A stretch of DNA of 64,000 bases from Escherichia coli (GCF_013122565.1 NZ_CP053258.1); one strand, 5' to 3'. Shown: positions 9,113 through 30,774, numbered from the stretch's first letter. Numbers and translations are program-made. The notes: generated by a model from the letters alone, not told the origin.

Positions 9113-9135
9113 GGGGGAATACCGTTTCCCCCTTT
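9113..9135 (+). terminator. Intrinsic terminator after toxin ORF copy 2
   Basis: Same hairpin as 8504-8526. Confidence 0.5.
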
Positions 9136-9270
9136 AATAAAGCTATACTCGTCATACTTCAAGTTGCATGTGCTGCGACTGCGTTCGTTCACCCCGGTCA
9201 CTTACTTTAGTAAGCTCCTGGGAATTCACTCGCTTATCGCCTTCCTGCAACTTGAATTATTTAGAGTATA

Positions 9271-9573
9271 TTATTCTATTTCTTGGTTGAATATATTCTG
9301 TAGTTCGCGATTAAAAATTGCTATTACCGTTTCAGGTGATTCACCTCGTAATTTCCGCTCATCAATACACTCATCTCTTATATAAATCAACGCATCATTT
9401 ATTTGCGGGTCGGCATCATTAAATGTTGGATGTAGCCGGAATCGCTCCAGCCGGTAGACGGAACCTGTAAATAATTCAGAGCATTTATGGATCTCAAGTC
9501 TGAAGGAAAACGGATCTTCAGGTACAGGGACCTCATAATCGTAAATAGCAACCAGCTCTTTTTGCACGATCAT
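9271..9573 (-). CDS. yehK: Small protein YehK
   Basis: 100-aa ORF directly downstream of yehI on the same strand; true start may differ slightly. Confidence 0.6.
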   Translation of the reverse strand: MIVQKELVAIYDYEVPVPEDPFSFRLEIHKCSELFTGSVYRLERFRLHPTFNDADPQINDALIYIRDECIDERKLRGESPETVIAIFNRELQNIFNQEIE

Positions 9574-9632
9574 CGCTTTCCCGTTGGTAAGTCGTGTTGA
9601 AAACGGGCAGTCGCATCACTGCCCGTTGTGTT

Positions 9633-13280: not shown

Positions 13281-13289
13281 GCTCTTTCC

Positions 13290-16200
13290 TTATTCAAACA
13301 GGGCTTCAATATCATTAATTAACTCGCTGGTGGTGATGGCATCGAGTACGGAGAACTGCGCTTCCTGAGTTGAATTATTCCTCCAGCCATAGCTTTCTGC
13401 TTTGCCTTCCCATAGCCACAGCTTGCTTAAGAGCTGCTCGGCGCTAAGTTCGGCTGGCGACATACCCACAGCAAAGCCTTCATCGATTTCCATGATTAAC
13501 GACCAGCGGCCCAGGGGTTTGATCATCCAGCAGATCCAGCCTCCATCCTGTGGTTCGCCCTTTATCCAGCCTTTATTCGCCAGCCCCATGACCCGACCAC
13601 TCGGGCATTTTCTGCCTGCCCAGCGGGTCAGTTCGCTGGCGTTGCGCTCGGCTTCTGTCAGGGCGTAACTGTTACGGTCAAGCTGACGGAACGGTGGTAG
13701 CAGTTCGTAGTCGGCAAAAAGCTGACCAAAGGCGGCAGCATCCGTCGGTGATATTTCCAGAACGTGAGGAATACCAATAGAGATATCGCCTTCCGGCAGG
13801 GTGAAAAGATCATCGTCAGCGGTGCTGTAACTGTTATCTTCCGCCACGCGAAAGCACGCCAGCAGCTGGTTTTCGGCGCTATAAACGCCCCAAATCAGAC
13901 GACGGGTTAAGTGGCGAACCAGCGGGTGCTCAACCAGGAAAAGCTGAAAGTTTTCCGGCGACCAGCGGCGGCGCAGGCACATGGCGGATTCCAGCCTTGC
14001 TACCTGCTGGGCGGCGACGGTACGCGCATCTTTTTTCAGCAATTTGTAGCGGTTTACCGCCTCATCAGCCCGCGATTCATCATCGCTTTTATTGGGTTTA
14101 GGTAAGTCTTTCAGGCGGCTGCCGGAAACATCACGCACAAACGGTTTTAAGGTTTCATCAAAGCTGACGGTGAACTGGCGTGAGCCGAAATCCAGCAGCA
14201 ACGAACCGTTATCATCCAGACCGAGATCCGGGGCCAGGCGATCTTCTAGCTCCGCCACCGTGAGTTCGCGGCTTTCGGCAATGTCGGCAATTTTTTCTTT
14301 TGCCCGCTCCTGTAATGCTTTGAATTTCAGTTTCTGGGCGATGCCGTTAAGTTGCATCAAGGCGATATCACTACCGATAGTGGCGAGAATATCCAACCCA
14401 ACGGTGGCGCGTTTATGCTGGGATTCACCAGGCCAGGCACGGATTAATGGCGTCAGTTTGCGGGCGGTGTCATCGTTACCGAGAACACCTAACGCGTTGA
14501 ACGCCCAGCTCTCTTTCGACGGCGCGCCAGCGGTCTGCCAGGCGGTAAACAGATCCCAGGCAAATCCCGCCAGTGAGTCGGGGGTACAGGCATCTTTCAC
14601 CTGCAATAATCCCGGATACAGTGCCTCTTCCTGAGGGAAGCGGAGCATTTCACCGAGGTAGAGTAGGGCGCTATCGGGCAGTGATTGGGCGTTTGCTTTT
14701 AATACCGGGCGCGTCCAGAGCGATGGCTGATAAAAGGCCGGAAGAGTGGGGATTTTTGTCGGGTGATTATCTAAGGGATCGAGCGCAAGCAGAGCGTTCA
14801 CCGCGTCTGTTACTTCCGGCTGGTTATAACGCCGGGCGATTTCTTGCAGTAATGGCTGATGACCGTTTTCGGTAAGCATACGCAAGGCAGCGCGGGCGTT
14901 ATCCTGTGCTTCACCGGCTTTGCCGAGCGCGGCAGGCAGCAGGCCGGTAATGGCGTGTTCCGGGTATTTCAACAGCCAGCTACGGGCGTCTTGTCGTAGG
15001 GTTTTGAGTTTGTTGAAGGCGCGGGCAATCAGTGGCGCTAATTCGATAGCCGCAAAATATTGTGCTATAGGCAGCGCTTCTTGCGGATAGCGAGATGCTG
15101 AGTGGATAAAACCTGTTAAACCAGCAAGTCGAAGATGCAACATTACTTGTTTTGCACCTGTATGTGGTTCTTTACTAAGGATGTTCCACATCTCGATAGC
15201 TTTATTAATGGGTAAAACATGGAGTGAAGAAAGATTCCATTCGCCCTGATAAGGGGAGTTATAGGACTTAAAAGCATCAATCAGCGCTGAATAATCTTCA
15301 CGCTGCCAGGCATCCAGTGCTATTTCTGGAACATCAATATAGCCTCTATGTTTGTTCCAATCCCAGCGGTTGAATCCCAGGGAGGTCAGAAAAGCTTTTT
15401 CTCCCTCAGCTTGCTGATGAGGTTGCCAGTTATGCTGCACTTGCAGTGTTTTGCTTTTTGTTTCATTTATTGTACAGAAGGATTCTAGGGATAATGGTGC
15501 TAAATCCAGCACCGAAATCGTCGATTTTTTCTTTTTAGCCAGCCAGGGCGGTGAGATTAGTACGGCAGGCAGCAAATCGGCGTTCGCATAAACTGAAGGT
15601 TGTGTCAGTTGTTGCAGGCATGACTTAAGTTCGGTAACCGCCGGAGCAGATAGCCAGGGAATTACCTGCTCTGCTAATGTTGGTTGTGAGATAAGCATTG
15701 TCATTAGCATCATGCGCCAGCGCTTTTCATCTTTTTGTGCCAGAAGTTCTGCTAATGCCGCCAGCGCTGCATGTGGAAAGCGAACGAAAGCCTTTGTCAT
15801 GCGATCGTGGCAACGCTTTCCCTGCTCGCTTGCATGGATAAGTAGTGTAAGTGCCTGGGGGTGGTTGATATGCATCAACACTTCCCCACATGTGTCACCA
15901 GCAGCGTAAGGAGCAAAACGGGCCAGCGCAGCGACACCTTGCTCCTTGAGTATCGTTGCACACCAGATTTTACCGCCGTAATAATCATCAAATACCTGCC
16001 CAGGCTGTCCTGGATAGTATTTTCCCAGTTCTGCCAATACCTGCTCGTCGGTGGTCGTCAGTTTCAGCCATTCCAGCGCATATAACCCTTTTTGTCCACA
16101 AAGATGTCTGGCAATCTCATGAGCTACTTCTGGTTTTTCCGGCAACAATAGTGCAACCAGTGGCTGGTGCCACGTGGGCATGGTTCCGAGAGCGGCAATC

Positions 16201-17048
16201 AGTTTGTCGGCGCAGCGCTGCCATACATCGTCATTTGCAAGTGAGAGATGCTTACGCAGGCGCATTTCAACCGAAGCGAAGCGTAACAGATAGCCAGGCT
16301 GCCTGTTATCCGGGGTAACCGTAATGAGATGGGCATCATAATCCCAGTCGAAGCGGATGAATTGCAATGCAATGACAACCTCAGTGGCATATTCCAGACC
16401 ACCTTCCTGGACAATTTGATCCATTAGCTCTTCATGATCGTTACGATTGAAGCCTTGTTCCAGCGCAACCAGTACCGCCAGAACCATCGGTGGTAGCGTG
16501 GTGCTAATTGGCGAGTCGATAAGGCCTACGGCTTGTGTAATTGCCTGCTGCCAGTCCAGTGAACAGGTGCTGTAATCGAAGGTGAGCACCTTTTTAAAAC
16601 GCCGGTGAGTATTCGCGGCGACGGAGCGTAGCAGGGTTAATTCATTCTCCTGTGGCACAGGAGCGCCAGGCCAGCGTCGATGACTTAGTGTGGTTGGCGC
16701 AACCTCTGTCGGTAAAATGATTTGGGTGTCGTCTGCCAGCCAGGGGAGGTGGTCTCCAGTAAATGCCGGTTTGTCTTGTGGCAAAGGGGTTATTTCCGGG
16801 CATTCGATAACCTTGCCGGGCGCAGATGTCGGTGTCATCACGGATACTTCTTCTACGTAGCCCTTTTTTGTTTTCTCCGTAATCAGCTTCAGTTCCGCTT
16901 TTTCCGCCGCTGCAGCATCTGCAAAGCTTTTTACCTGGCTTTGCCCGTTAGTACCGACTTTGCCCCAGGTAATATGCAGCTCGTTTCCCTGCTGCTCCAC
17001 CGCCCAGAATTTATGTGATTTTTCATCCTGATAAATATAGGTTTTCAT
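13290..17048 (-). CDS. MolR-family protein, paralog D (1252 aa), N-terminal WGR-like domain
   Basis: Intact ORF; N-terminus MKTYIYQDEKSHKFWAVEQQGNELHITWGKVG; start 12 nt downstream of paralog C stop with AAGGAA SD. Confidence 0.85.
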   Translation of the reverse strand: MKTYIYQDEKSHKFWAVEQQGNELHITWGKVGTNGQSQVKSFADAAAAEKAELKLITEKTKKGYVEEVSVMTPTSAPGKVIECPEITPLPQDKPAFTGDHLPWLADDTQIILPTEVAPTTLSHRRWPGAPVPQENELTLLRSVAANTHRRFKKVLTFDYSTCSLDWQQAITQAVGLIDSPISTTLPPMVLAVLVALEQGFNRNDHEELMDQIVQEGGLEYATEVVIALQFIRFDWDYDAHLITVTPDNRQPGYLLRFASVEMRLRKHLSLANDDVWQRCADKLIAALGTMPTWHQPLVALLLPEKPEVAHEIARHLCGQKGLYALEWLKLTTTDEQVLAELGKYYPGQPGQVFDDYYGGKIWCATILKEQGVAALARFAPYAAGDTCGEVLMHINHPQALTLLIHASEQGKRCHDRMTKAFVRFPHAALAALAELLAQKDEKRWRMMLMTMLISQPTLAEQVIPWLSAPAVTELKSCLQQLTQPSVYANADLLPAVLISPPWLAKKKKSTISVLDLAPLSLESFCTINETKSKTLQVQHNWQPHQQAEGEKAFLTSLGFNRWDWNKHRGYIDVPEIALDAWQREDYSALIDAFKSYNSPYQGEWNLSSLHVLPINKAIEMWNILSKEPHTGAKQVMLHLRLAGLTGFIHSASRYPQEALPIAQYFAAIELAPLIARAFNKLKTLRQDARSWLLKYPEHAITGLLPAALGKAGEAQDNARAALRMLTENGHQPLLQEIARRYNQPEVTDAVNALLALDPLDNHPTKIPTLPAFYQPSLWTRPVLKANAQSLPDSALLYLGEMLRFPQEEALYPGLLQVKDACTPDSLAGFAWDLFTAWQTAGAPSKESWAFNALGVLGNDDTARKLTPLIRAWPGESQHKRATVGLDILATIGSDIALMQLNGIAQKLKFKALQERAKEKIADIAESRELTVAELEDRLAPDLGLDDNGSLLLDFGSRQFTVSFDETLKPFVRDVSGSRLKDLPKPNKSDDESRADEAVNRYKLLKKDARTVAAQQVARLESAMCLRRRWSPENFQLFLVEHPLVRHLTRRLIWGVYSAENQLLACFRVAEDNSYSTADDDLFTLPEGDISIGIPHVLEISPTDAAAFGQLFADYELLPPFRQLDRNSYALTEAERNASELTRWAGRKCPSGRVMGLANKGWIKGEPQDGGWICWMIKPLGRWSLIMEIDEGFAVGMSPAELSAEQLLSKLWLWEGKAESYGWRNNSTQEAQFSVLDAITTSELINDIEALFE

Positions 17049-17060
17049 TGCAAATTCCTT

Positions 17061-18500
17061 TTAATCAAACAGTGATTCAATATCGTTAATCAGCTCGCTG
17101 GCAGTGATGTCGTCGAGCACGGAGAAGGGATAAACCGATTTGCGCGGCGTCAGTTTGTACAACTGAATGTGCTCAATTTTTTGGTTATCGCTGATTTCGG
17201 TGACGGGCAATCCAACACAGAAGCCGGGTGTCACACTCAGTTCGACGTAGCCATCATCCACAGCTTTATAAAATGAGTAATAGCCGCCACCATCCAGAAC
17301 ATCGCCCCGTTGCCAGCCTTTATTCATCAGCCCGGCGACGCGCCAACTCGCTGCCTGGCGACCAGCCCAGCGCTGCAAATCGTTGCTGTTTTTTTCTGAA
17401 TCAGAGAGCTGAGACCAGGGGCGATCAAGTTGACGGAACGGTGGCAGGAGTTCGTAGTCAGAGAACAGTTGGGCAAATTCAGCAGCCTGTGGGGCCGGGA
17501 TTTCCAGCACATGCGGGATACCGATACAGCCCTGCGCAAGGGTAAACGGGGTATCCTGACCGTCGCTAAAACTGCCATCCTCCGCCACGCGAAAACAGCA
17601 AATAAGGTGATTATCAGCGTCATAAATGCCCCACATCAGACGTTGGGTGATATGACGAACCAGGGGATGCTCAACCAGAAACAGGCGGAACTGTTCTGCA
17701 GTCCAGCGGCGACGCTGACACATGGCGGCTTCCAGACGCGAAATCTGTTGTGCAGCTACCGTGCGGACATCTTTTTTCAACAACTTGTAGCGATTTACCG
17801 CTTCCTCAGCCAGCGTTTCATCATCGCTTTTGTTCGGTTTGGGCAGGTCTTTCAGACGGTTGCCGGAAGTATCGCGCACAAACGGTTTTAAGGATTCATC
17901 AAAGCTGACGGTGAACTGGCGTGGGCCGAAATCCAGCAGCAGCGAACCGTTATCATCCAGACCGAGATCGGGCGCTAACCGGTCTTCCAGCTCTGCGACA
18001 GTGAGCTGGCGGCTTTCGGCAATCTGGGCGATTTTAGTTCTAGCCTGATCCTGCAAGGCTTTAAATTTTAGCTTTTGCGCAATGCCGTTAAGCTGCATCA
18101 GGGCGATATCGCTGCCGATAGCAGCAAGAATATCCAGCCCGACAGTGGCGCGTTTATGCTGGGATTCCCCCGGCCAGGCGCGGATGAGCGGGGTGAGTTT
18201 GCGGGCGGTGTCATCGTTACCCAGAATCCCCAGTGTGGTAAATGCCCAGTTATCTTTAGCTGAGCCACTGGCAGATTCCCAACTGAGGAAGAGATCCCAG
18301 GCAAAATCGGCAAGAGATTGCGGGGTACAGGCCTCGATTACCTGTGTAATTCCTGGGTAAAGGGTGGCTTCGCGGGGGAAAGAGAGCATGGTGCACAGGT
18401 GCAGGATGGCTGAATCTGAAAGTGCCTTGCCGTTACTGCGCAGAAGCGGGCGGTGCCATACTTCTGGCGAACACCACCCAGGGAGTTTAGCGATTTTCTG
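17061..18500. repeat. ~1.45-kb near-identical block shared by paralogs C and B (copy 1)
   Basis: C-terminal ~480 codons of paralog C are nearly identical to paralog B (20910..22350); antisense spurious ORFs are duplicated too. Confidence 0.8.
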
Positions 18501-20897
18501 CGGATAGTTTTCCAGCGGATCTGCTGCTAAAAAGTCGGTAAGTGCAGTCATTACCTCAGGTTGTTGGTAACGGCTGGCAATTTTTTTCAGCAACGCGAGA
18601 TGACCATTATTGGCCAGGTAGCGTAATGTCATCCGGGCATCTTGTTGTTCTTTAACTGGTTTACTCAGCGCAATGGGCAGCAGCCCGGTAATGGCATGTT
18701 CCGGGTAGGTGGTGAGCCAATATTCAGCGACATCTCGTACGGATTTTAACTGGCAAAATGCGCGGGCCATCAGCAGGGCAACTTCAGTGGAACCGAATTG
18801 AGCGGCGAGGGGAACCGCCTCCTTAGGGTTTACCAGGGCATAACGCAACAGACCTGGTACCGTAGATAGACCAAATCGCTCAACCACTTTTTCAGCACCC
18901 ACGAGGTGCATGTGTGAGAGTCCATTCCAGATTGAGAGCGCTTTCTCTGCTGGTAGACGAGTGAGTATGGATACAGAAAAGGTAATAAAACCTTCATAAT
19001 CATACTTTGGTCGGGTATTTAACAACGATTCATAATCTTCCGTTTCCAGCAGACGAATGGCCGTTTTTGTTACGCCCCATTTAATATCAAATCTTTCTGG
19101 ATCAGGATTATTCTCATCAAATGCTCCGCTTCTGAATCCCAGGCGGCGTAAGACTTCAGCAGTAGAAGGTATTTCTGCTTCGGGTTGTGGCTGAGGTTTG
19201 GGGCCAATGGACTCCAGAGGTAATACGGGTAATGTAAATATCGTCGTGGCTGATTTATTCTTTTTCTTCAGCCAAATTGGATTAGTTAATATACCGGGTA
19301 ACTCACAAGCATTGGCTATCTCTTCTTTAGCATGCAATTGAGGGAAATAACTGAATAAAAGTTGTTTCTGTTCCTCACTCAACCAGGGCATTGTATTACG
19401 CAAGGTTTGAGCATTACCTAATACAATTTGTTCCATCAGGCGAGAATACCTCAGATTTTTAGCACTAAGCAAAGCTGCAGTAAGGGCATAAAGCGCCGAT
19501 TCTGGGTACTTCGAAGCCGAAATTTCGACACCTATGGCACATTCCTCTTTGATAAACAACGTAACGACATCAGGATGGTTAATTTCCTGAAGTGCGTGTC
19601 TGACAGGATAACTATCGTTAACGCCCTCTTGCAGACGTGACAGCGCATTAAGACCTTGTTCACGCAGTAGGGTTTTAATACAACGCTTCGTCATATCGCC
19701 TCCCCATCCCGTTGTGAGTTCAAGTTGATGGAAATGCTTCAGCAGACACGTTGCTTGTGGGTCAGTTGTGACAAGGGAAAGCCACTCAATCTCTGGGTAA
19801 TCATGCATAGGGGCAATTTCCAGGGCTATCTGATTGGCAATATCTGGTTTTTCTGGTAGCAAAAAAGCAATTAATGGGCGTCTGCGGGCAGGCAGTGAAG
19901 GGAGAGCATCTATGAGTTTATTAGCACAGCGTTGCCAGGTTTCCTCATCTGTGTGCGAAAGGTGTTCTCGTAAACGTAACTCTATTTCGTCGCTGAATCC
20001 ATATTTGTAGCGCATGTCGGAAATATCGTGGCTAAGGCTTACTACAGGTAGATAATAATTGTCTGCCATTTCCCCTCTTCTCAGCGCACTAAAAAGACTA
20101 TTGTAATGAAGTTTTAAAGTGGCATTTTTTGTAGGATCGGTATTTGCGTCGTCAGTCATTTGTACATGCTGTATAGCGATAACTAACTCAGTGGCATACT
20201 CAAGGCCTCGCAGTTGCACTATGCTATCCAGCCATGTATGAGGGCGACCGGGGCAGCCGATAATTAATCTTGTTAGTGTCAATATGGCGTCGGAAAGCAA
20301 CGATCCGTCTTGCTGTAATTTATGGATGCGCGAAATAGTTTCCTGTAACGCCAATTGCCATTCTGACTGGCATTGGCTGACATCGAGCTTTTGCAGACAG
20401 GCAAGGTAAAATGCTGCCCAATATGGGTACTTTTTTAGTTGCATCCAGAAGAAACCATCTTTATCAACAATGTCCAGAGGATCATTAATCAAGTGACGAT
20501 GGCTAAACGGCGCGGGTTCATCATTGGCAAAAATAACAATTGACTCACCGTCCTTCAGCCAGGGCGGCGTTTCCAACGTGGGCATCGCTTGTGGCTGTGC
20601 CGTTTCAGGCGTTGTGAAGTTTCCGGTTGGTATTGCTAACTCTTGTACTGAAATTGTGCTTGATATCGGAGAATTTATGATGGTTTCTGGCGAACCATGC
20701 TTCACATATCCCTTCTTCATCTTCTCCGCAATCAGCTTCAGTTCCGCTTTTTCCGCCGCTGCAGCATCTGCAAAGCTTTTTACCTGGCTTTGCCCGTTAG
20801 TACCGACTTTGCCCCAGGTAATATGCAGCTCGTTTCCCTGCTGCTCCACCGCCCAGAATTTATGTGATTTTTCATCCTGATAAATATAGGTTTTCAT
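17061..20897 (-). CDS. MolR-family protein, paralog C (1278 aa), N-terminal WGR-like domain
   Basis: Intact ORF; C-terminal ~480 aa nearly identical to paralog B. Confidence 0.85.
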   Translation of the reverse strand: MKTYIYQDEKSHKFWAVEQQGNELHITWGKVGTNGQSQVKSFADAAAAEKAELKLIAEKMKKGYVKHGSPETIINSPISSTISVQELAIPTGNFTTPETAQPQAMPTLETPPWLKDGESIVIFANDEPAPFSHRHLINDPLDIVDKDGFFWMQLKKYPYWAAFYLACLQKLDVSQCQSEWQLALQETISRIHKLQQDGSLLSDAILTLTRLIIGCPGRPHTWLDSIVQLRGLEYATELVIAIQHVQMTDDANTDPTKNATLKLHYNSLFSALRRGEMADNYYLPVVSLSHDISDMRYKYGFSDEIELRLREHLSHTDEETWQRCANKLIDALPSLPARRRPLIAFLLPEKPDIANQIALEIAPMHDYPEIEWLSLVTTDPQATCLLKHFHQLELTTGWGGDMTKRCIKTLLREQGLNALSRLQEGVNDSYPVRHALQEINHPDVVTLFIKEECAIGVEISASKYPESALYALTAALLSAKNLRYSRLMEQIVLGNAQTLRNTMPWLSEEQKQLLFSYFPQLHAKEEIANACELPGILTNPIWLKKKNKSATTIFTLPVLPLESIGPKPQPQPEAEIPSTAEVLRRLGFRSGAFDENNPDPERFDIKWGVTKTAIRLLETEDYESLLNTRPKYDYEGFITFSVSILTRLPAEKALSIWNGLSHMHLVGAEKVVERFGLSTVPGLLRYALVNPKEAVPLAAQFGSTEVALLMARAFCQLKSVRDVAEYWLTTYPEHAITGLLPIALSKPVKEQQDARMTLRYLANNGHLALLKKIASRYQQPEVMTALTDFLAADPLENYPQKIAKLPGWCSPEVWHRPLLRSNGKALSDSAILHLCTMLSFPREATLYPGITQVIEACTPQSLADFAWDLFLSWESASGSAKDNWAFTTLGILGNDDTARKLTPLIRAWPGESQHKRATVGLDILAAIGSDIALMQLNGIAQKLKFKALQDQARTKIAQIAESRQLTVAELEDRLAPDLGLDDNGSLLLDFGPRQFTVSFDESLKPFVRDTSGNRLKDLPKPNKSDDETLAEEAVNRYKLLKKDVRTVAAQQISRLEAAMCQRRRWTAEQFRLFLVEHPLVRHITQRLMWGIYDADNHLICCFRVAEDGSFSDGQDTPFTLAQGCIGIPHVLEIPAPQAAEFAQLFSDYELLPPFRQLDRPWSQLSDSEKNSNDLQRWAGRQAASWRVAGLMNKGWQRGDVLDGGGYYSFYKAVDDGYVELSVTPGFCVGLPVTEISDNQKIEHIQLYKLTPRKSVYPFSVLDDITASELINDIESLFD

Positions 20898-20909
20898 TGC
20901 AAATTCCTT

Positions 20910-22350
20910 TTAATCAAACAGTGATTCAATATCGTTAATCAGCTCGCTGGCAGTGATGTCGTCGAGCACGGAGAAGGGATAAACCGATTTGCGCGGCGTC
21001 AGTTTGTACAACTGAATGTGCTCAATTTTTTGGTTATCGCTGATTTCGGTGACGGGCAATCCAACACAGAAGCCGGGTGTCACACTCAGTTCGACGTAGC
21101 CATCATCCACAGCTTTATAAAATGAGTAATAGCCGCCACCATCCAGAACATCGCCCCGTTGCCAGCCTTTATTCATCAGCCCGGCGACGCGCCCACTCGC
21201 TGCCTGGCGACCAGCCCAGCGCTGCAAATCGTTGCTGTTTTTTTCTGAATCAGAGAGCTGAGACCAGGGGCGATCAAGTTGACGGAACGGTGGCAGGAGT
21301 TCGTAGTCAGAGAACAGTTGGGCAAATTCAGCAGCCTGTGGGGCCGGGATTTCCAGCACATGCGGGATACCGATACAGCCCTGCGCAAGGGTTAACGGGT
21401 TATCGTGACCGTCGCTAAAACTGCCATCCTCCGCCACGCGAAAACAGCAAATAAGCTGATTATCAGCGTCATAAATGCCCCACATCAGACGTTGGGTGAT
21501 ATGACGAACCAGGGGATGCTCAACCAGAAACAGACGGAACTGTTCTGCAGTCCAGCGGCGACGCTGACACATGGCGGCTTCCAGACGCGAAATCTGTTGT
21601 GCAGCTACCGTGCGGACATCTTTTTTCAACAACTTGTAGCGACTTACCGCTTCCTCAGCCAGAGTTTCATCATCGCTTTTGTTCGGTTTGGGCAGGTCTT
21701 TCAGACGGTTGCCGGAAGCATCGCGCACAAACGGTTTTAAGGATTCATCAAAGCTGACGGTGAACTGGCGTGGGCCGAAATCCAGCAGCAGCGAACCGTT
21801 ATCATCCAGACCGAGATCGGGCGCTAACCGGTCTTCCAGCTCTGCGACAGTGAGCTGGCGGCTTTCGGCAATCTGGGCGATTTTAACTCTTGCCTGATCC
21901 TGCAAGGCTTTAAATTTTAGCTTTTGCGCAATGCCGTTAAGCTGCATAAGAGCGATATCGCTGCCGATAGCAGCAAGAATATCCAGCCCGACAGTGGCGC
22001 GTTTATGCTGGGATTCCCCTGGCCAGGCGCGGATGAGCGGGGTGAGTTTGCGGGCGGTGTCATCGTTACCCAGAATCCCCAGCGCGGTAAATGCCCAGTT
22101 ATCTTTAGCGGAGCCACTGGCAGATTCCCAACTGAGGAAGAGATCCCAGGCGAAATCAGCAAGAGACTGCGGAGTACAGGCCTCGATTACCTGTGTAATC
22201 CCGGGGTAAAGGGTGGCTTCACGGGGGAAAGAGAGCATGGTGCACAAGTTCAGGATAGCTGAGTCAGGAAGTGCCTTGCCGTTACTGTGCAGAAGCGGGC
22301 GATGCCATACTTCTGGCGAACACCAGGTGGGGAGTTTGGCGATTTTCTGC
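20910..22350. repeat. ~1.45-kb near-identical block shared by paralogs C and B (copy 2)
   Basis: See 17061..18500. Confidence 0.8.
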
Positions 22351-24650
22351 GGAAAATTATCGAGTGGGTCGCAGTTAAGGACATCTAACAAACCTGTAAG
22401 CACTTCTGGCTGATTATAGCGGTGGGCAATTTGTTCCATTAACGGCTGATGCCCATGATGAGCCAAATAGCGTATTGCCATCACAGCATCCTCACGTTCA
22501 CTGCCCGGTTTGCCGAGTACAGCAGGTAATAGACCTGTAATAGCATGTTCCGGATAGGTTAATAACCAACGCTGTGCGACGTCACGTACAGATTTTAGCT
22601 GACGAAAAGCGCGTGCCATTAATAGCGCCACGTCGGTTGTACCAAAACGTGCGGCTAAAGGAATGGCTTCCTGAGGTACGACTAAGGCGTGACGCAGCAA
22701 GCCGGGTAATGTGGGAAGACCGTAATAGTCCACTACTTCGCATGCGTTAATCAGATGTAGGTGAGTCAGTGCGTTCCATATTTTCAGTGCTTTATTTTCT
22801 GTTAGCTGAAGCAATACAGACACATTGACAAGGATATGACTTGCCCACCGAGGTTTATCCCAGATCTTTAATAAAGCTTCGTAATTGTCTTGCTCGAAAA
22901 AATCAATGGCAGCCTGAGGTATACCCCAACCAAGCTCTTCGCAATGGAAGTTCAACAAATCCAGGATATCTTTCGCTGATGGGGATGGCGCAGATGGCTC
23001 AGTCAGATTTTTTGTTGCGGGGATAGATTCCAGGGGGGAAAGAGGTAATACCCGGAGAGTGAGGTTGATACCAGCAACCTTTTTCTTTTTTTTCACCCAT
23101 GAAGGGGCGATCAATATACTAGGTAACTCATTCTGATGAGCAATTTTTTCGCTGGACATAAGCTGAGGAAAATAACTAAATAAAATTTGTTGCTGTTTTT
23201 CGTCAAGGCAGGGTAGCGTTTTATGTAAGGCTTGCGCATTACCCAAGATGATGCGCTCCAGTAAACGATAATAGCGCGGGTTATTTGTGTGATTTAAGGC
23301 TTTTGTTAATGCATAAAGTGCAGCTTCTGGATGTAAATTTGTTGCGCATTCCACTTCACTGATACATTCTTCTTTTATTAATATATTAATGGCGTCAGGA
23401 TGATTAACTTGTGTAATTAGATTTTTAACTGAATAACTATCCTTTATCCAACGCTGAAGAAGCGGAAGAGCTTTTACCCCTCGTTCGCGCAGTAATGTCG
23501 CAGTGCATTTTTCAGCCATCTGCCAGTCGTTATAGCGCTTAAGTTGGTTAAGATTCATTAATTCATTGAGTGCCTGCGCATCTGTGGCAACGATATCCAA
23601 CCATTCCATTTCTGGGTAATTAACACATTGCACTAAATCAAGGACAATTTGATTAGCAATTTCAGGTTGTTCAGGCAAAAGAAAACCAATTAAAGGACGT
23701 TTACGTGGAGACAGGAAAGGCAACGCTTGAGTAAGCTTTTTCATGCACCGTTGCCATGTTTTTTCATCAGTGCGCGAGAGATGATTTCGCAAGTGAAAAT
23801 CTACAGTGCTGAAGCCGAACTCAAAACGTTGTTCTGATATTGTGTTACTGAGAATAAGCGTTGGTACGGAATTATTTGTAAAAAAATTGTATTCCATGCG
23901 AACATACAAAAGGCATTTATTTAATGCATCACAATTTCCTGGATCTTGATTTTGATCATCAGATATCTGAATTTGCTGCAATAGCAAGACTAATTCGGTC
24001 GCGTATTCTACCCCATGTTGTTGCACCAGATAATCAAAAAGATCATTGACACTATCGCTATTTTGCATAAGTAACTTGACCAGCAAAAAGAATGCATCGG
24101 AGAAAATAGAACCGTCTATATTTTTCTGCTGAACGCGCATGATTGCTTCATCCCGGCCTCGTTGCCATTCCGGGCGGCAGTCACTCACATCAAAATGCTG
24201 TAATTGTGCAAGAAAATAGTATTCCTCATATTTGTTTTCCCATAAGAATGACCATAACGAGATATCTTTAGCAAACGTGCTGACACTGTCTGCTGGGAAT
24301 TTCCTACTGCTAAATACTCTCTTCGTTTCGAGAATAATTGGTTCAATGTCTGCAATCCACGGTGGTGTGTCGACATCAGTAATAATTGGATGTTGTTCGC
24401 TATCATCATCTGTGGTGGGAACAGCAATCAGCATGTTTATATCGTCAGTCGATTTTACATACCCCTTCTTCACCTTCTCCGCAATCAGCTTCAGTTCCGC
24501 TTTTTCCGCCGTTGCAGCATCTGCAAAGCTTTTTACCTGACTTTGCCCGTTAGTGCCGACTTTGCCCCAGTTGATATGCAGCTCGTTGTCTTGCTGCTCA
24601 ACCGCCCAGAATTTATGTGATTTTTCGTCCTGATAGATATAGGTTTTCAT
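20910..24650 (-). CDS. MolR-family protein, paralog B (1246 aa), N-terminal WGR-like domain
   Basis: Intact ORF; same N- and C-terminal blocks as paralog C, divergent middle. Confidence 0.85.
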   Translation of the reverse strand: MKTYIYQDEKSHKFWAVEQQDNELHINWGKVGTNGQSQVKSFADAATAEKAELKLIAEKVKKGYVKSTDDINMLIAVPTTDDDSEQHPIITDVDTPPWIADIEPIILETKRVFSSRKFPADSVSTFAKDISLWSFLWENKYEEYYFLAQLQHFDVSDCRPEWQRGRDEAIMRVQQKNIDGSIFSDAFFLLVKLLMQNSDSVNDLFDYLVQQHGVEYATELVLLLQQIQISDDQNQDPGNCDALNKCLLYVRMEYNFFTNNSVPTLILSNTISEQRFEFGFSTVDFHLRNHLSRTDEKTWQRCMKKLTQALPFLSPRKRPLIGFLLPEQPEIANQIVLDLVQCVNYPEMEWLDIVATDAQALNELMNLNQLKRYNDWQMAEKCTATLLRERGVKALPLLQRWIKDSYSVKNLITQVNHPDAINILIKEECISEVECATNLHPEAALYALTKALNHTNNPRYYRLLERIILGNAQALHKTLPCLDEKQQQILFSYFPQLMSSEKIAHQNELPSILIAPSWVKKKKKVAGINLTLRVLPLSPLESIPATKNLTEPSAPSPSAKDILDLLNFHCEELGWGIPQAAIDFFEQDNYEALLKIWDKPRWASHILVNVSVLLQLTENKALKIWNALTHLHLINACEVVDYYGLPTLPGLLRHALVVPQEAIPLAARFGTTDVALLMARAFRQLKSVRDVAQRWLLTYPEHAITGLLPAVLGKPGSEREDAVMAIRYLAHHGHQPLMEQIAHRYNQPEVLTGLLDVLNCDPLDNFPQKIAKLPTWCSPEVWHRPLLHSNGKALPDSAILNLCTMLSFPREATLYPGITQVIEACTPQSLADFAWDLFLSWESASGSAKDNWAFTALGILGNDDTARKLTPLIRAWPGESQHKRATVGLDILAAIGSDIALMQLNGIAQKLKFKALQDQARVKIAQIAESRQLTVAELEDRLAPDLGLDDNGSLLLDFGPRQFTVSFDESLKPFVRDASGNRLKDLPKPNKSDDETLAEEAVSRYKLLKKDVRTVAAQQISRLEAAMCQRRRWTAEQFRLFLVEHPLVRHITQRLMWGIYDADNQLICCFRVAEDGSFSDGHDNPLTLAQGCIGIPHVLEIPAPQAAEFAQLFSDYELLPPFRQLDRPWSQLSDSEKNSNDLQRWAGRQAASGRVAGLMNKGWQRGDVLDGGGYYSFYKAVDDGYVELSVTPGFCVGLPVTEISDNQKIEHIQLYKLTPRKSVYPFSVLDDITASELINDIESLFD

Positions 24651-24662
24651 TGCTAAATCCTT

Positions 24663-27600
24663 TTAATCAAACAGTGATTCGATGTCGTTAATCAGCTCGC
24701 TGGCGGTGATGTCGTTGAGCACGGAGAAAGTGGGTGAGGATTGTTTACCATAGCGATCATAAGGGGCGGTGATTTTTACGCTTTCGACAGGCAGCAGGTC
24801 GCTATACCCCGTTTCGCCATAAATTAATGAAAAAGGTTCTGTTTCAAGTTCGAGAGCGCCATAAGGGGTAGATTTGCGCATCGCATAGATGCTGCCGCTT
24901 TCTTCCAGACGTTGCCAGCCTCTGCGTTCCAGCCCGACAATGCGTCCGGCCTGGCAGAGACGTCCGTTCCAGCGTGACAATTCATGGGCATCACGCTCGT
25001 TATCCGCAAGGTGGTAACTACCACGATCGAGCTGTTGGAAAGGGGGAAGCAGTTCGTAATCAATGTATATTTGCCTGAATGCAGCGGCGGATTCAGGGGG
25101 GATTTCCAGCACATGCGGAATACCGATGTTTCCTGCTGGCAGCGTGAATAGCTCATCCTGCGCATCGCTGTAAGTGCTGTCTTCTGCCACACGAAAACAG
25201 GTGATAAGGGCGTTTTCATCGTTATAAACCCCCCATAACAGCCGTCGGGTTAAGTGACGTACCAGCGGATGCTCCACCAGAAACAGGCGGAACTGCTCTG
25301 CCGTCCAGCGTCTGCGCTGGCACATAGCCTGCTCCAGACGATCAATCTGCTGGCTGGCAATGGCGCGCACATCTTTCTTCAATTGTTTAAAGAGGTTAAC
25401 GGCGTCAGTTGCCAGTGTTTGATCATCGCTCTGGTTTGGTTTGGGTAAATCTTTCAGGACTTTGCCGTTTGCGTCGCGAACCACGGGTTTCAAGGTTTCG
25501 TTAAAACCAACGGTGAATTGACGTGGGCCGAAATCAAGTGTCAGCGAGCCATTGCTATCAAGCCCTAAATCTGGAGCCAGGCGGTCTTCCAGTTCAGCCA
25601 TAGTCAGCCCACGGTTTTCAGCAACTATGTTGATTTTCTCGCGGGCATGTTCCTGTAATGCTTTGAATTTAATTTTTCGCGCGATGCCATTAAGCAGCAT
25701 TAGCGCAACATCGCTGCCAATATCAGCTAATACATCCAGCCCGGACACCGCCCGTTTATGCTGGGATTCCCCAGGCCAGGCGCGGATGAGCGGAGTTAAT
25801 TTACGCGCGGTGTCGTCATTGCCTAAAATCCCAAGCGAAGTAAATGCCCAGTTTTCTTTTGCTGGGGCACCAGCTTCTGTCCAGGCGGTATACAGATCCC
25901 AGCCAAAGTCAGCCAGTGATTCGCGGGTGAAGGTTTCTCTAATGATATCCAGCCCAGCGTAGGCGGTAATGTCGCGTGGAAAGCTCAACATTGTGCCGAG
26001 GTGGCGCATAGCGTCATCTGGCAGAGGCAGGTTGTTACTTTTAAGCCGAGGTCTGTGCCATAAGGTGAACTGATAAAAGCCGGGCAGTGGGGCGATTTTT
26101 GCAGGATATTCTTCCAGTGGGTCGCTATCAAATAATGTTGCCAGCGCAGCTAAAACATCAGGTTGATTATATCCTTGGGCGATTTCCTCAATCGTTTCTC
26201 GCTGGTTTAAATTCACCAGCAGGCGGAGCGCCTGGCGGGCACAATCACGATCTTTTCCTTTTTTGCCCAGGGCCACAGGAAGTAGCCCGGCGGCGGCATG
26301 GCGCGGATAATCAGTTAGCCAGTTTCGCGCATCTTCATAAGACATTTTTTTCTGTAATTGTTGCGCCATCGGTAAGGCCAGTTCACTGACACCGAGGAAA
26401 AAGGGGAAGAAGCACAGGCGTCGTGGATCACGTTGCAGGCAGGTCATAAATGCAGGTATGGCGGCGCTACCAAAAAGTGCCAGAATATTTCCCTCACCAG
26501 AGTAGTTATCTTCTTTGACTATCTGGTTAAGAAAAGAAATGGCCTGTTGACCAGGCAGGTAACAGAGGGCAATAAGATTCCAGCTTTTGTATGCATTGTT
26601 ATGGTATTGCACAAATTCAGCATTCAATGCTGGAAAATCGAAGCGTAGCAGGGCATCAACGGCACTTTGTGGCGCCGGAATTTTTTCGTATATTTTTTCT
26701 CCGCTCTCCCGCCATTTTTCAAAACCAAGATGCCACAGTATTTGTTGCTCCGGTGTAAGCGGTATTAAGTGTTTCTCCCAGCTTGCTTTTTTCATCGGTG
26801 CCAGGTCGGTAAACAATGTTTGTTTTGTCGCCTGCTGTTGGGCTATTTGCTGGAAGCGGGTGATAAGGTAAGTACGGGTCAGTTTTTTGGCAATCTCTGG
26901 AGTGATATCCGAAACAGAAGGAACTGGGAGCACAGGAAGATCAAACACCGGCGTATTTTTCTTTTTCTCTTTGGTCATCCAGGGAGGCGAAACAAACAGC
27001 TCTGGCAACATATCCGCAGTGGCATATTCACATTCTTCAGCGACTGACTGCGGACGACATTCAGATAAGATGCCAGCGGCTTTGGCATTAACCCAGGGAA
27101 TGACGTCGCATACTAACTCTGGCGTGATGGTAATCAGTTTGATAAGTGCGTTACGCCACTGTGCATCTTCATGTATTGCCAGCAAAGTAGCATAAGCGGC
27201 AAGAGCCGCAGCGGGATGTTTTTGACAGGCTTTGCTTAAGTATTCCAGGTGCTTTTTCTTGCCAATCACACCGAGGATCAGAATTTGAATCGCATCCGGG
27301 TGATTCGTTTTCCATAGCCATTTGACAAGATTTTCAGTCTCGCTGTTGCGCTCGAAAAGATAAGTGGGATTGTCAGAATGCTCTTCCGTAAACTCAAGAA
27401 GGATCTGGCTTACACCCCGAATTCCATTATTCGCCAGCAACATTGCCAGATAAGCGCGAAAATTACGAAAATCACGATACAACGGTGGGAAGTCGTATTT
27501 TTCCACTGTACTAAGAGCAGTATCATCGGTTATCACCAGTCTTAACCAGGTCATCGCCGGAACGTTTTGGTCTGCATAGCGTAGAGCCATAGCATTGGCA

Positions 27601-28469
27601 ATATCCGGGCGTTCAGGGAGCAGTAACGCCGCAAAAGGTTGCCGTGCTGGAGATAGCGAGGGAATAGCCGCGAGTACTTTATCTACACAGCGTTGCCACT
27701 CATCTTCTGAAGCGAGTGAAAGATGATGACATAGACGTTGATGCCAACTAGGTAGCGATTCTGCTTCGTGATTAGGTGGAATGATGGTGGTTACTGCGCC
27801 TTTTACTGGTTTATATCTAAGTTGAATAGCGAGAAGGGCAATTTCAACGGCGCTTTCCAGACCACAGCGAATGACTAAGTCATCGACCAGTTCATCTGCA
27901 GAGTAAGAGTTCCAGAAACTCCAGAGCAATGCTGCATCAGATTGCGCACTCCCTGTCTGTTGATTACCCTGAACTCGCATTTGTAACTCAGCAAAAGCAT
28001 GCTGCCAGTTTTCTGGATAAGAACGGTAATTGTTGTCGGGATCATATGCCCTGGTGTTATCTGCAATACGCTTCCATATCTCACCGTCTTTGCGCAGATA
28101 ATTGATCTCTCTGGGGCGAGAGCGATGAGGGAAAGCAAATCGATTAATATCGTCAGTTACCGGAATGACTGCATCATCAGCCAGCCATGGGCGTTTGTTT
28201 TTACTCTCAAGGGAAGTTTCAACTTCAGGAGTGGCTTTGGTGCTGGAGATATGCACGTTTGCTGAAGCATCTTCCACATAGCCTTTTTTCGTTTTCTCTG
28301 CGATAAGCTTTAGTTCCGCTTTTGCCGCTGCCGCAGCATCCGCAAAACTTTTTACCTGGCTTTGCCCTTGGGTGCCAACTTTTCCCCAACTGATATGCAA
28401 CTCGTTTCCCTGTTGCTCCACCGCCCAGAATTTATGTGATTTTTCGTCCTGATAGATAAAGCGTCTCAT
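24663..28469 (-). CDS. molR: MolR-family protein, paralog A (1268 aa), first gene of the array next to metG
   Basis: Intact ORF; N-terminus MRRFIYQDEKSHKFWAVEQQGNELHISWGKVG; occupies the K-12 molR (pseudogene) position. Confidence 0.8.
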   Translation of the reverse strand: MRRFIYQDEKSHKFWAVEQQGNELHISWGKVGTQGQSQVKSFADAAAAAKAELKLIAEKTKKGYVEDASANVHISSTKATPEVETSLESKNKRPWLADDAVIPVTDDINRFAFPHRSRPREINYLRKDGEIWKRIADNTRAYDPDNNYRSYPENWQHAFAELQMRVQGNQQTGSAQSDAALLWSFWNSYSADELVDDLVIRCGLESAVEIALLAIQLRYKPVKGAVTTIIPPNHEAESLPSWHQRLCHHLSLASEDEWQRCVDKVLAAIPSLSPARQPFAALLLPERPDIANAMALRYADQNVPAMTWLRLVITDDTALSTVEKYDFPPLYRDFRNFRAYLAMLLANNGIRGVSQILLEFTEEHSDNPTYLFERNSETENLVKWLWKTNHPDAIQILILGVIGKKKHLEYLSKACQKHPAAALAAYATLLAIHEDAQWRNALIKLITITPELVCDVIPWVNAKAAGILSECRPQSVAEECEYATADMLPELFVSPPWMTKEKKKNTPVFDLPVLPVPSVSDITPEIAKKLTRTYLITRFQQIAQQQATKQTLFTDLAPMKKASWEKHLIPLTPEQQILWHLGFEKWRESGEKIYEKIPAPQSAVDALLRFDFPALNAEFVQYHNNAYKSWNLIALCYLPGQQAISFLNQIVKEDNYSGEGNILALFGSAAIPAFMTCLQRDPRRLCFFPFFLGVSELALPMAQQLQKKMSYEDARNWLTDYPRHAAAGLLPVALGKKGKDRDCARQALRLLVNLNQRETIEEIAQGYNQPDVLAALATLFDSDPLEEYPAKIAPLPGFYQFTLWHRPRLKSNNLPLPDDAMRHLGTMLSFPRDITAYAGLDIIRETFTRESLADFGWDLYTAWTEAGAPAKENWAFTSLGILGNDDTARKLTPLIRAWPGESQHKRAVSGLDVLADIGSDVALMLLNGIARKIKFKALQEHAREKINIVAENRGLTMAELEDRLAPDLGLDSNGSLTLDFGPRQFTVGFNETLKPVVRDANGKVLKDLPKPNQSDDQTLATDAVNLFKQLKKDVRAIASQQIDRLEQAMCQRRRWTAEQFRLFLVEHPLVRHLTRRLLWGVYNDENALITCFRVAEDSTYSDAQDELFTLPAGNIGIPHVLEIPPESAAAFRQIYIDYELLPPFQQLDRGSYHLADNERDAHELSRWNGRLCQAGRIVGLERRGWQRLEESGSIYAMRKSTPYGALELETEPFSLIYGETGYSDLLPVESVKITAPYDRYGKQSSPTFSVLNDITASELINDIESLFD

Positions 28470-28577
28470 TCTGCATCCCTGTAATTTTATCCAGTTGAAT
28501 GCAGATGCTACCAGTATTTATGCGGGTTAGAGAGAGACAAAATCGCAAGAAAACAACTTTAGGAATTTATAAAGAAA

Positions 28578-28600
28578 AGGCGCTGTCGATGCAGCGCCTT
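28578..28600 (-). terminator. Probable metG intrinsic terminator
   Basis: aaggcgctg-tcgatg-cagcgcctt hairpin followed on minus strand by T-rich run. Confidence 0.5.
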
Positions 28601-28609
28601 GAAGGGGGA

Positions 28610-30643
28610 TTATTTCACCTGATGACCCGGTTTAGCACCGGCATCCGGGCTTAGCAGGAAGATATCTTTCCCGCCAGGACCAGCAGCCATTACCATGCCT
28701 TCGGAGATACCAAAGCGCATTTTACGCGGCGCCAGGTTAGCCACCATAATGGTGTGACGACCAATCAGAGCCTGCGGATCCGGGTAAGCAGAACGAATGC
28801 CGGAGAAAACATTACGTTTTTCACCGCCGAGATCCAGTGTCAGTCGCAGCAGTTTGTCAGAACCTTCAACAAACTCTGCATTTTCAATCAGCGCCACGCG
28901 CAGGTCAACTTTAGCGAAGTCGTCAAAGGTGATGGTTTCCTGAATCGGATCGTCTGCCAGCGGGCCAGTAACTGGCGCGGCAGCTGCTTTCACTTCTTCT
29001 TTAGAGGCTTCCACCAGTGCTTCAACCTGCTTCATATCGATGCGGTTATACAGCGCCTTGAACGGATTCACTTTGTGGCCCAGCAGCGGTTGCTGGATAC
29101 CATCCCAGGTCAGTTCCGTATTGAGGAATGCTTCTGCACGCTCGGTCAGTTTCGGCAGTACCGGCTTCAGGTAAGTCATCAGCACGCGGAACAGGTTTAT
29201 GCCCATTGAGCAAATTGCCTGCAGGTCGGCATCGCGGCCTTCCTGTTTCGCCACAACCCACGGAGCCTGTTCATCGACATAGCGGTTAGCCAGATCAGCC
29301 AGCGCCATGATTTCGCGCACGGCTTTACCAAATTCGCGGCTTTCCCACGCTTCACCAATCACTTCAGCGGCATCAGTGAAGGTTTTGTACAACTGCGGGT
29401 CAGCCAGTTCGCTTGCCAGCACACCGTCAAAACGCTTGTTGATAAAGCCCGCATTACGAGAGGCCAGGTTAACCACTTTGTTAACGATATCGGCATTCAC
29501 GCGCTGAACGAAATCTTCCAGGTTGAGATCGATATCATCAATGCGCGAAGAGAGTTTCGCAGTGTAGTAGTAACGCAGGCTGTCAGCGTCAAAATGATTC
29601 AGCCAGGTGCTGGCTTTAATAAAGGTACCGCGAGACTTAGACATCTTCGCGCCGTTCACCGTCACATAGCCATGAACAAACAGGTTGGTCGGCTTGCGGA
29701 AGTTGCTGCCTTCCAGCATTGCTGGCCAGAACAGACTGTGGAAGTAAACAATATCTTTACCGATGAAGTGGTACAGCTCGGCGGTGGAGTCTTTCTTCCA
29801 GTATTCATCGAAGCTTACGCTGTCGCCGCGCTTGTCGCACAGATTCTTGAAAGAACCCATATAGCCAATCGGCGCATCTAGCCAGACGTAGAAATATTTA
29901 CCCGGCGCGTTCGGAATTTCAAAACCGAAGTACGGCGCGTCGCGGGAGATATCCCACTGTTGCAGGCCGGATTCAAACCACTCCTGCATTTTATTTGCCA
30001 CCTGCTCCTGCAACGCACCGCTGCGGGTCCATGCCTGCAACATTTCGCTGAAAGAGGGCAGATCAAAGAAGAAGTGTTCAGAATCACGCATTACCGGCGT
30101 AGCGCCAGAAACCACCGATTTCGGCTCGATCAATTCAGTCGGGCTGTAGGTCGCGCCGCAAACTTCGCAGTTATCGCCGTATTGATCCGGGGATTTACAT
30201 TTCGGGCAGGTGCCTTTCACAAAACGGTCCGGCAGGAACATGCCTTTTTCCGGATCGTACAGCTGAGAGATGGTGCGGTTTTTAATAAAACCGTTTTCTT
30301 TCAAGCGAGTATAGATAAGCTCAGACAACTGGCGGTTCTCTTCGCTGTGCGTCGAGTGATAGTTGTCATAGCTGATGTTAAAGCCTGCGAAATCAGTCTG
30401 ATGCTCCTGACTCATTTCGCCAATCATCTGCTCCGGGGTGATACCAAGCTGCTGAGCTTTCAGCATGATCGGTGTACCGTGGGCATCGTCGGCGCAGATG
30501 AAGTTGACCTCGTGGCCGCGCATTCGCTGGTAACGGACCCAGACATCAGCCTGGATGTGCTCCAGCATATGGCCGAGGTGGATTGAGCCGTTAGCGTACG
30601 GCAGTGCGCACGTCACCAGAATTTTCTTCGCGACTTGAGTCAT
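28610..30643 (-). CDS. metG: Methionyl-tRNA synthetase (677 aa)
   Basis: N-terminus [25 protein letters not shown] (HIGH motif), KMSKS present; ORF trimmed by 3 codons. Confidence 0.95.
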
Positions 30644-30774
30644 AGTAGGCATTACTTCTTAATAGTGAAAAGGGGTTAGATAGTACCAAATGGGAAAATG
30701 TTAAGTAAGTACTTCTCTATATTCTTCAGGTAAACTATCAGCTGATGGTTTATCTATACAAAAAAGGAGTCGGG

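Follow-up and report, generated by a model that had tools for sequence, protein, structure and literature searches.

A short gap behind Escherichia coli metG is probably a compact PmolR control region that ties a WGR/DUF4132 gene array to the SOS and Rcs-partner circuits

What drives the transcription of a large gene array that begins just behind metG, a highly expressed housekeeping gene? The question arises in a 64,000-nucleotide stretch of Escherichia coli DNA (GCF_013122565.1, NZ_CP053258.1), hereafter the window. All features described here lie on its minus strand, and all coordinates are window coordinates unless a K-12 accession is given. The metG reading frame (28610..30652; annotated as metG in both strain 6EVA and K-12) ends with a TAA stop codon at 28610..28612, and the ATG of the first array gene, paralog A, occupies 28467..28469 in the ORF list, leaving an intergenic gap of 140 bp (28470-28609). 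The initial annotation had proposed that either the promoter for the whole array lies in this gap or the array is expressed by read-through from metG. The first of these options is borne out, because the gap contains a promoter documented in K-12 on identical sequence by a lacZ fusion, 5'-RACE and a PmolR-mVenus reporter; with a promoter in place, obligatory read-through from metG is not needed.

The array runs from 28469 to 9633 and measures 18.8 kb, in line with the ~19 kb first estimated. It consists of five intact ORFs of 1215-1278 aa each, namely paralogs A (24663-28469), B (20910-24650), C (17061-20897), D (13290-17048) and E (9633-13280). [quoted passage not shown] The protein encoded by paralog A begins with MRRFIYQDEK and enters its WGR domain at residue 7, and the N-termini of paralogs B-D follow the same pattern. 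The junctions between successive ORFs are 12, 12, 12 and 9 bp long and have the form TAA-AAGGA-N7-ATG, ribosome-binding sites included. No strong minus-strand terminator was found within the array, and a hairpin followed by UUUUC directly 3' of paralog E (9598..9627; -18.1 kcal/mol, z -4.5) is the probable 3' end of the unit. Judged from this layout, the five paralogs (9633..28469) plausibly form one transcription unit reaching from the gap promoter to the hairpin after paralog E, with internal promoters possible. When the first 200 aa served as a protein query, the matches were mostly truncated E. coli fragments; neither paralogs A and E nor YehK matched any PADLOC defence model; Rfam models run over 27900-29200 yielded only a chance snoRNA match (E = 1.8); and a literature search on DUF5682/yehLMPQ found nothing.

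The gap is the promoter region of molR (yehF/yehH), PmolR, which has already been characterised in E. coli K-12. The segment 28300-28800 is a 100% match to strain 6EVA, where metG and a DUF4132 protein are annotated, and of 5426 complete E. coli genomes, 5412 contain the gap with its flanks at 95-100% identity. In an alignment to K-12 MG1655, 200 of 201 bases are the same; the sole difference falls within an ORF and the gap is 100% identical. K-12 PmolR (NC_000913.3 2196334-2196473) thus has the same intergenic sequence as the window and the same neighbors, with metG upstream and a WGR gene downstream in both. The two strains differ in what follows: the K-12 downstream genes have decayed, yehF (formerly molR_1) encoding 274 aa, yehH being a pseudogene and only yehI remaining intact, whereas the window carries five intact paralogs.

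Several published findings bear on this sequence. Salscheider, Jahn and Schnetz (PMC3950696) fused the intergenic DNA ahead of molR (yehH) to lacZ and found that BglJ activates it in an RcsB-dependent manner; their 5'-RACE maps a molR start site whose product is weak without BglJ and strong with it. The same study describes a BglJ-RcsB box that was defined by mutagenesis and is centered 65-68 bp upstream of the start; mutation of the box abolishes activation, and inserting 5 bp between box and core promoter kills activation while inserting 10 bp restores 25% of it (PMC3950696). Expression of molR is not raised in an hns stpA mutant, that is, the promoter is not repressed by H-NS/StpA (PMC3950696). 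A chromosomal PmolR-mVenus reporter, built with a primer that contains this same sequence, is functional (PMC5025477). With respect to LexA, molR is entered under 'Known SOS box' (PMC6590174), is counted among 32 known LexA-regulated genes (PMC11039860) and is LexA-regulated according to RegulonDB (PMC4576408). Because the gap is identical to that of K-12, the BglJ-RcsB activation, the 5'-RACE start and the SOS-box listing apply to it directly. In laboratory K-12, bglJ itself is silenced by H-NS.

We next located the individual elements of the gap. Its metG-proximal end is occupied by the metG intrinsic terminator (28569..28600), a stem-loop at 28600-28577 (AAGGCGCUG-CAUCGA-CAGCGCCUU) with the U-rich tail UUUUCUUUAU. 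The terminator scan described a 9-bp stem (6 G-C) and a 6-nt loop, then TTCTTTATAA; the tail was read as UUCUUUAUAA and has 7 U among its first 9 bases. The hairpin folds at -15.5 kcal/mol (z = -5.1), a value that none of 200 shuffles equaled, and it is kept in the orthologous regions of Escherichia and Klebsiella. By its sequence, this terminator appears canonical and strong. The hairpin at 28578-28600 reported in the initial annotation is therefore present, although the coordinates are one base off, and the ~105 bp given for its distance from paralog A agrees with the 107 nt that we count from the hairpin foot to the ATG.

Directly after the terminator U-tract lies the BglJ-RcsB activator box TTTATAAATTCCTAAAGTT (28555..28573), recognized by a core match and by its conservation. 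Its core, AATTCCTA at 28567-28560, is the only match in the gap to the wwTTCykA motif, read by eye on the minus strand, and its right half (aatTCCTA) resembles the RcsB half-site tatTCctA, both as published (PMC3950696). A 40-bp spacer follows (28515..28554) that is diverged in sequence but fixed in length in a seven-taxon alignment and has TCTCTA at the -35 position (28533-28528). Next comes a conserved element that we assign as an extended -10, CTGgTAGCAT (28505..28514; TG at 28513-28512, hexamer TAGCAT at 28510-28505). Subtracting the published 65-68 bp (PMC3950696) from the box center at ~28564 leads to 28499-28496, which would place the PmolR start at ~28498 +/- 2 (28496..28500), 7 nt past the -10 hexamer. 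The assignments of both the start site and the -10 derive from position relative to the activator box, and the geometry of box and extended -10 is consistent with the published 65-68 bp, a distance that was itself used to place the start. The LexA (SOS) box AACTGGATAAAATTACAGGG (28477..28496; CTG at 28494-28492, CAG at 28481-28479), identified by weight matrix and conservation, would cover about +3 to +22 of the transcript, and a ribosome-binding site, AGGGA (28476..28480), can be read 6 nt before the start codon. An out-of-frame upstream AUG at 28475-28473 is not conserved in other species and was dismissed.

The absence of a usable -35 (TCTCTA) explains both the weak basal activity of the promoter and its failure to register in searches for consensus elements. 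The initial annotation had noted that no convincing sigma70 promoter could be seen by eye, and our consensus sigma-70 scan of the minus strand of the gap likewise found none; a promoter of the extended -10 type that depends on an activator and lacks a usable -35 is easily overlooked in this way. Since the promoter is non-canonical, the negative scan is no evidence of absence. A sigma-54 reading of TGGTAGCATCTGCA was also tried and rejected, as the spacing is wrong by eye and no pattern match was obtained: the sigma-54 pattern (TGGCAC-N5-TTGCW) has no minus-strand match at <=3 mismatches in 28470-28576, and its matches across the window are at chance level (334 versus 356 expected).

The LexA box was examined with a weight matrix trained on 27 E. 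coli boxes, molR not being among them. In the 64-kb window, 28477-28496 is the top match at 17.7 bits, followed by a next-best site at 13.5 bits; the training sites range from 12.8 to 26.5 bits. The box stands at the weak end of known sites, as 22 of the 27 training sites score higher and the median of the training set is 19.8 bits. Among 20 shuffled 64-kb windows, one or two reach a similar score, with a maximum of 19.7. LexA boxes of 13.8-20.7 bits are found at the same position, ending 6-7 nt before the ATG, in six other taxa (E. whittamii, E. sp. E1V33, E. albertii, K. grimontii, K. oxytoca and I. alba), while no LexA box was found upstream of Erwinia homologues, which do not adjoin metG. 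Both the published listings and these sequence tests point to membership of PmolR in the LexA regulon.

Conservation was followed beyond E. coli by scanning species-representative genomes with paralog A, which identified orthologous metG-gap-paralog junctions in E. whittamii, Escherichia sp. E1V33, E. albertii, Klebsiella grimontii, K. oxytoca and Intestinirhabdus alba. Over the seven taxa, the activator box is invariant at 13 of its 19 columns, the extended -10 at 9 of 10 and the LexA box at 13 of 20, compared with two of 40 in the spacer and none of the eight between the -10 and the LexA box. The stretch from the activator box to the LexA box is free of indels in every taxon, and ACAGGGA around the ribosome-binding site is invariant in all seven. 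These three blocks and their spacing are a textbook phylogenetic footprint. That Escherichia, Klebsiella and Intestinirhabdus all retain them speaks for an ancient dual control kept by selection, and the invariant spacer length fits the published +5/+10 bp phasing (PMC3950696). In I. alba the metG stop lies 270 bp before the ATG (versus 140) and the activator box is still present, with ~130 bp between it and a hairpin just after the metG stop. Since the box is kept there at a distance from the terminator, it is not conserved merely as a terminator tail. Among the 120 matched stretches listed by a metagenome pattern scan, only seven were true orthologous promoters.

Two readings of the gap compete with the one developed so far. 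One of them concerns the -10: TAAAAT (28489-28484), inside the LexA box, matches TATAAT at five of six positions compared with four of six for TAGCAT, and many LexA boxes overlap a -10. Transcription would then start at ~28477, the mRNA would be almost leaderless and LexA would act by occluding the -10. We regard this placement as highly improbable. Klebsiella, E. whittamii and E. albertii have TAAAAA, without the last T of the hexamer, and I. alba has no such hexamer at all (GATGTATGC), whereas TAGCAT is invariant; moreover, a start at ~28477 would strip off the ribosome-binding site and would put the center of the activator box at about -87 rather than at the published 65-68 bp (PMC3950696). 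The other reading holds that the gap is only a leaky terminator and that the array is expressed mainly by transcription entering from metG, either by terminator read-through or from starts inside metG. In its favor, a K-12 survey under standard growth (Kim 2012; PMC3415461) gives molR_1 just two starts, at NC_000913.2 2194254 (19 reads) and 2194259 (12 reads), 242 and 237 nt before molR_1, and none in the gap. When transferred to the window in this analysis, these sites correspond to 28711 and 28706 (28706..28711), within the 3' part of the metG coding sequence and ahead of the terminator, and their read counts are on par with the 18 reads of the metG promoter itself (PMC3415461). Furthermore, with metG being a housekeeping gene, a few percent of read-through could rival a weak, repressed promoter.

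That survey, however, assigns each start to the nearest downstream gene, which does not imply passage through the terminator (PMC3415461); transcripts from the two metG-internal starts may end there as short 3' RNA. The lack of a gap start in the survey also fits a PmolR that is silent in unstressed K-12, with LexA bound and BglJ absent. The supplements examined from three K-12 end-mapping datasets (Adams 2021, Yan 2018 and Ettwiller 2016) gave no entry or coordinate for metG or molR. Against this reading, the terminator looks strong by sequence (-15.5 kcal/mol, 7 of 9 U at the start of its tail), a promoter in the gap has been established experimentally in K-12 and promoter elements there are conserved between genera; in addition, the ribosome-binding site and AUG are predicted to be hidden in any RNA that arrives from upstream. 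We consider it very unlikely that the array depends mainly on metG transcription. The read-through option of the initial annotation is disfavored as an obligatory route, while some low-level read-through is possible, though not required for array expression.

The predicted burial of the ribosome-binding site comes from an inverted repeat that encloses the LexA box (28470..28505), with a 5' arm at 28505-28497 (UCUGCAUUC) and a 3' arm at 28478-28470 (GGAUGCAGA). The 5' arm takes in the final base of the -10 and the putative start, the 3' arm begins at the ribosome-binding site and ends immediately before the AUG, and the top of the stem is formed by the LexA arms (CUG/CAG). RNA spanning 28510-28464 is predicted to fold at -14.1 kcal/mol (z -4.7), whereas RNA beginning at 28498 reaches only -2.3 kcal/mol (z -0.6). 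As the 5' arm always contains or precedes the putative start, the hairpin would form only in RNA that originates upstream. Folding predicts such a hairpin in five of eight lineages, the other four being E. sp. E1V33 (-11.5, z -3.3; GCAUCC/GGAUGC), E. albertii (-12.6, z -3.6), E. fergusonii (-14.0, z -4.5; CAUCCGC/GCGGAUG) and K. grimontii (-15.6, z -5.4; CAUCAACG/CGUUGAUG). Arm sequences vary by lineage, a further pair being CAUCUGCAU/AUGCAGA.

These observations raise the possibility of a layer added to PmolR control rather than a replacement for it: the inverted repeat would serve as a fold-back insulator that buries the ribosome-binding site and AUG in upstream-started RNA, while PmolR-started RNA, devoid of the 5' arm, would be translatable. 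We put this forward tentatively. Supporting it are the stable hairpins in five lineages (z -3.3 to -5.4), set against the unstructured RNA from 28498, and complementarity that is kept with different arm sequences above a null in which TAGCAT, CAGGGA and ATGA were held fixed and only the variable bases randomised. Against that null, each of the five hairpin lineages gave p = 0.001-0.004, and Fisher's combined p was 7e-7 over seven pooled lineages (E. albertii not pooled). Native arm pairs also outperformed cross-lineage pairs (permutation p ~0.001), and a C-to-U change in E. marmotae keeps a G.U pair and is thus RNA-compatible. In read-through RNA, the ribosome-binding site and AUG were less accessible than in shuffled-upstream controls in seven of seven taxa, but the effect per taxon was modest (percentile 4-22%). 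Other evidence speaks against an insulator: by folding, the hairpin is absent from K. oxytoca, a Klebsiella-like metagenome sequence (L053) and I. alba; pairing registers differ among lineages, so that there is no column-by-column covariation; complementarity between the CAT of the -10 and ATG is trivial; disruptive single changes occur in E. whittamii and a metagenome variant (L104); and the lineages are few and not fully independent.

The predicted arrangement resembles that of IS10 and IS50, whose transposase mRNAs are reportedly subject to fold-back inhibition that protects them from external promoters, as Davis, Simons and Kleckner (1985) and Schulz and Reznikoff (1991) are said to have described. 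In those elements the native start lies inside or after the 5' arm and the 3' arm covers the ribosome-binding site and AUG, and the same is predicted for PmolR. Unlike IS10 and IS50, PmolR is chromosomal and sits beside a housekeeping gene rather than in a mobile element, its loop is a LexA operator and three of its lineages are without the hairpin. It is conceivable, albeit doubtful at present, that the LexA operator forms the loop of an IS10-style insulator, such that leak-through from metG would be translationally silent and only RNA started under SOS or RcsB control would make protein. If so, the insulator would have been maintained by differing arms in E. coli, E. albertii, E. fergusonii and K. 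grimontii, and it would explain how a tightly repressed promoter can be situated 107 nt behind a strongly expressed gene.

Taken together, our findings suggest, with a probability of roughly 0.88, that the gap is a compact PmolR control region comprising terminator, BglJ-RcsB box, -10, start and LexA box, and that it ties the array to SOS and to an Rcs partner. On the minus strand the order would be the metG terminator, the activator box, a 40-bp spacer without a -35, TGgTAGCAT, a start at ~28498, the LexA box (28496-28477), the ribosome-binding site and the ATG. K-12 work on identical DNA has shown PmolR to be weak on its own, free of H-NS repression and activated by an RcsB-BglJ heterodimer acting from about -66 in a manner dependent on helical phase. 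LexA bound across the start site would shut the promoter, DNA damage would relieve it through RecA-stimulated LexA cleavage, and the 18.8-kb array would then be transcribed from PmolR as one unit to the hairpin after paralog E. With a promoter, a LexA site and a BglJ-RcsB site all in the gap, the array would be linked to the SOS and Rcs-partner circuits and not to metG expression. LexA control is probable from secondary listings together with the sequence tests of this analysis.

PmolR shares features with both promoter classes to which it would belong. Like other BglJ-RcsB promoters (leuO P2, bgl, ynbA, ynjI, ygiZ and sfsB), it has an asymmetric box with the RcsB-like half facing the promoter, and a position of the box at about -66, together with the phase dependence published for it, would resemble a class I activator. 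It differs from them in that its box abuts a terminator U-tract and in that bgl, leuO and yidL are repressed by H-NS/StpA whereas PmolR is not (PMC3950696). The sequence of the PmolR activator box is also conserved in Klebsiella and Intestinirhabdus. In common with the LexA-repressed SOS promoters of recA, sulA, umuDC and uvrA, PmolR has a CTG-N10-CAG box with an A/T-rich center that scores within the known range and would lie in the promoter/start region. By contrast with those promoters, its box is weak, is located just downstream of the putative start rather than over the -35 or -10, and PmolR needs an activator besides for strong output. We know of no repair role for the WGR/DUF4132 proteins of the array.

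PmolR itself, its activation by BglJ-RcsB and its listing under LexA are already known. The conservation of the three blocks and their spacing in three genera, the position of the promoter at the head of five intact paralogs and the candidate fold-back hairpin possibly go beyond the literature examined. A distant parallel comes from Deinococcus radiodurans, in which the WGR protein DR2173 and the DUF4132 protein DRA0166 are strongly induced upon depletion of DdrO, the repressor of the radiation response in Deinococcus (PMC8533742). By analogy, DNA-damage control of the WGR/DUF4132 family may be a general theme. A crude search of Bacteroides, Chitinophaga, Bacillus, Fusobacterium and Actinomadura loci that encode distant WGR homologues found no upstream SOS box of the Firmicute/actinobacterial (Gram-positive) type (GAAC-N4-GTTC) and so leaves a phylum-wide SOS link unsupported by that search.

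The array is thus headed by a mapped promoter with two known inputs, LexA and RcsB-BglJ, and its expression would not be a by-product of metG. With five intact paralogs behind PmolR, this strain is better suited than K-12 for asking what effect SOS induction of these proteins has. If the insulator is real, the array is silenced with uncommon stringency unless DNA has been damaged, and this, together with the Deinococcus parallel, would favor seeing the so-called molybdate regulator family as a DNA-damage-response module.

Two 5' ends recorded in a survey of K-12 start sites (PMC3415461) fall within the 3' coding region of metG, at the equivalent of window positions 28706-28711 on the minus strand, and their 19 and 12 reads are comparable with the 18 at the metG promoter itself. 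They are located about 100 nt 5' of the metG stop codon, upstream of the metG terminator, and a TAAAAT hexamer (28724-28719, minus strand) precedes them. Should RNAs begun at these positions stop at the terminator, the product would be a 3'-end-derived RNA of about 135 nt.

At the other edge of the gap between metG and paralog A, an out-of-frame AUG (28473-28475, minus strand) lies 7 nt upstream of the annotated paralog A start and opens an overlapping 14-codon ORF (AUGCAGAAUGAGACG...UAA). This AUG is probably not used, as it is missing from E. albertii and Klebsiella in our species comparison. The spacer of PmolR, the promoter in this gap, occurs in sharply different allelic forms, which we refer to as the E. 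coli, E1V33/albertii and fergusonii types, while the three regulatory blocks (activator box, extended -10 and LexA box) remain unchanged. A comparison of positions 5849-6030 of locus L004 with E. coli genomes found the E1V33-type allele in only 4 of 5416 genomes labelled as E. coli, at 95-99% identity. Four short contigs (L005, L018, L019 and L020) carry metG-molR sequence of Escherichia or Klebsiella type and are filed as Collinsella, Xanthobacter autotrophicus and a Prolixibacteraceae bacterium. Their best aligned segments are 72-87% identical to paralog A, and the promoter region of L019 and L020 is nearly identical to that of K. grimontii; these contigs probably represent assembly contamination.

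Within the array, the junctions between paralogs A to E (24651-24662, 20898-20909, 17049-17060 and 13281-13289, all minus strand) consist of near-identical 12-bp units, reading TAAAAGGAwTTwGCA-ATG with the flanking codons and shortened to 9 bp ahead of E; conservation extends into the coding sequence on both sides, to the final codons of one paralog and the first codons of the next. Units of this kind lend themselves readily to unequal recombination. Both the copy number and the integrity of the array differ among strains: in strain 6EVA paralog 3 is cut short, with a C-terminal DUF4132 fragment lying separately after it (L001, 27904-31662), and K-12 retains only yehF (274 aa), the yehH pseudogene and yehI (L002, 2975-6770). 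Additionally, the blaCTX-M-15 transposon TnMB1860 is inserted in the "metG/DUF4132/yeh region" of ST131 sublineage L1a (PMC9334617).

The array is probably terminated by a strong hairpin between paralog E (yehI-like) and yehK (9598-9627, minus strand), which folds as AACGGGCAGU-GAUGCG-ACUGCCCGUU followed by UUUUC, with a folding energy of -18.1 kcal/mol and a z score of -4.5. The terminator scan reports this hairpin on the plus strand as well, so it may work in both directions. Beyond it lie yehK (9271-9573), whose 100-aa product has no Pfam match, and a cluster of yehL (MoxR AAA+), yehM, yehP (VWA) and yehQ (SWIM). None of the proteins tested against the PADLOC defence models (paralogs A and E and YehK) gave a match. 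The 138-bp intergenic stretch between yehK and yehL (9125-9262) is a dispersed repeat: E. coli genomes carry 1-9 copies of it (median 5) at 90-99% identity, and it may resemble the ERIC/IRU intergenic repeat.

A parallel to this locus exists in Deinococcus radiodurans, where depletion of DdrO, the repressor of the radiation and desiccation response, strongly upregulates a WGR protein and a DUF4132 protein (loci DR2173 and DRA0165-DRA0166; PMC8533742). The DdrO regulon is a second, unrelated DNA-damage regulon over the same domain families as those under LexA in E. coli.
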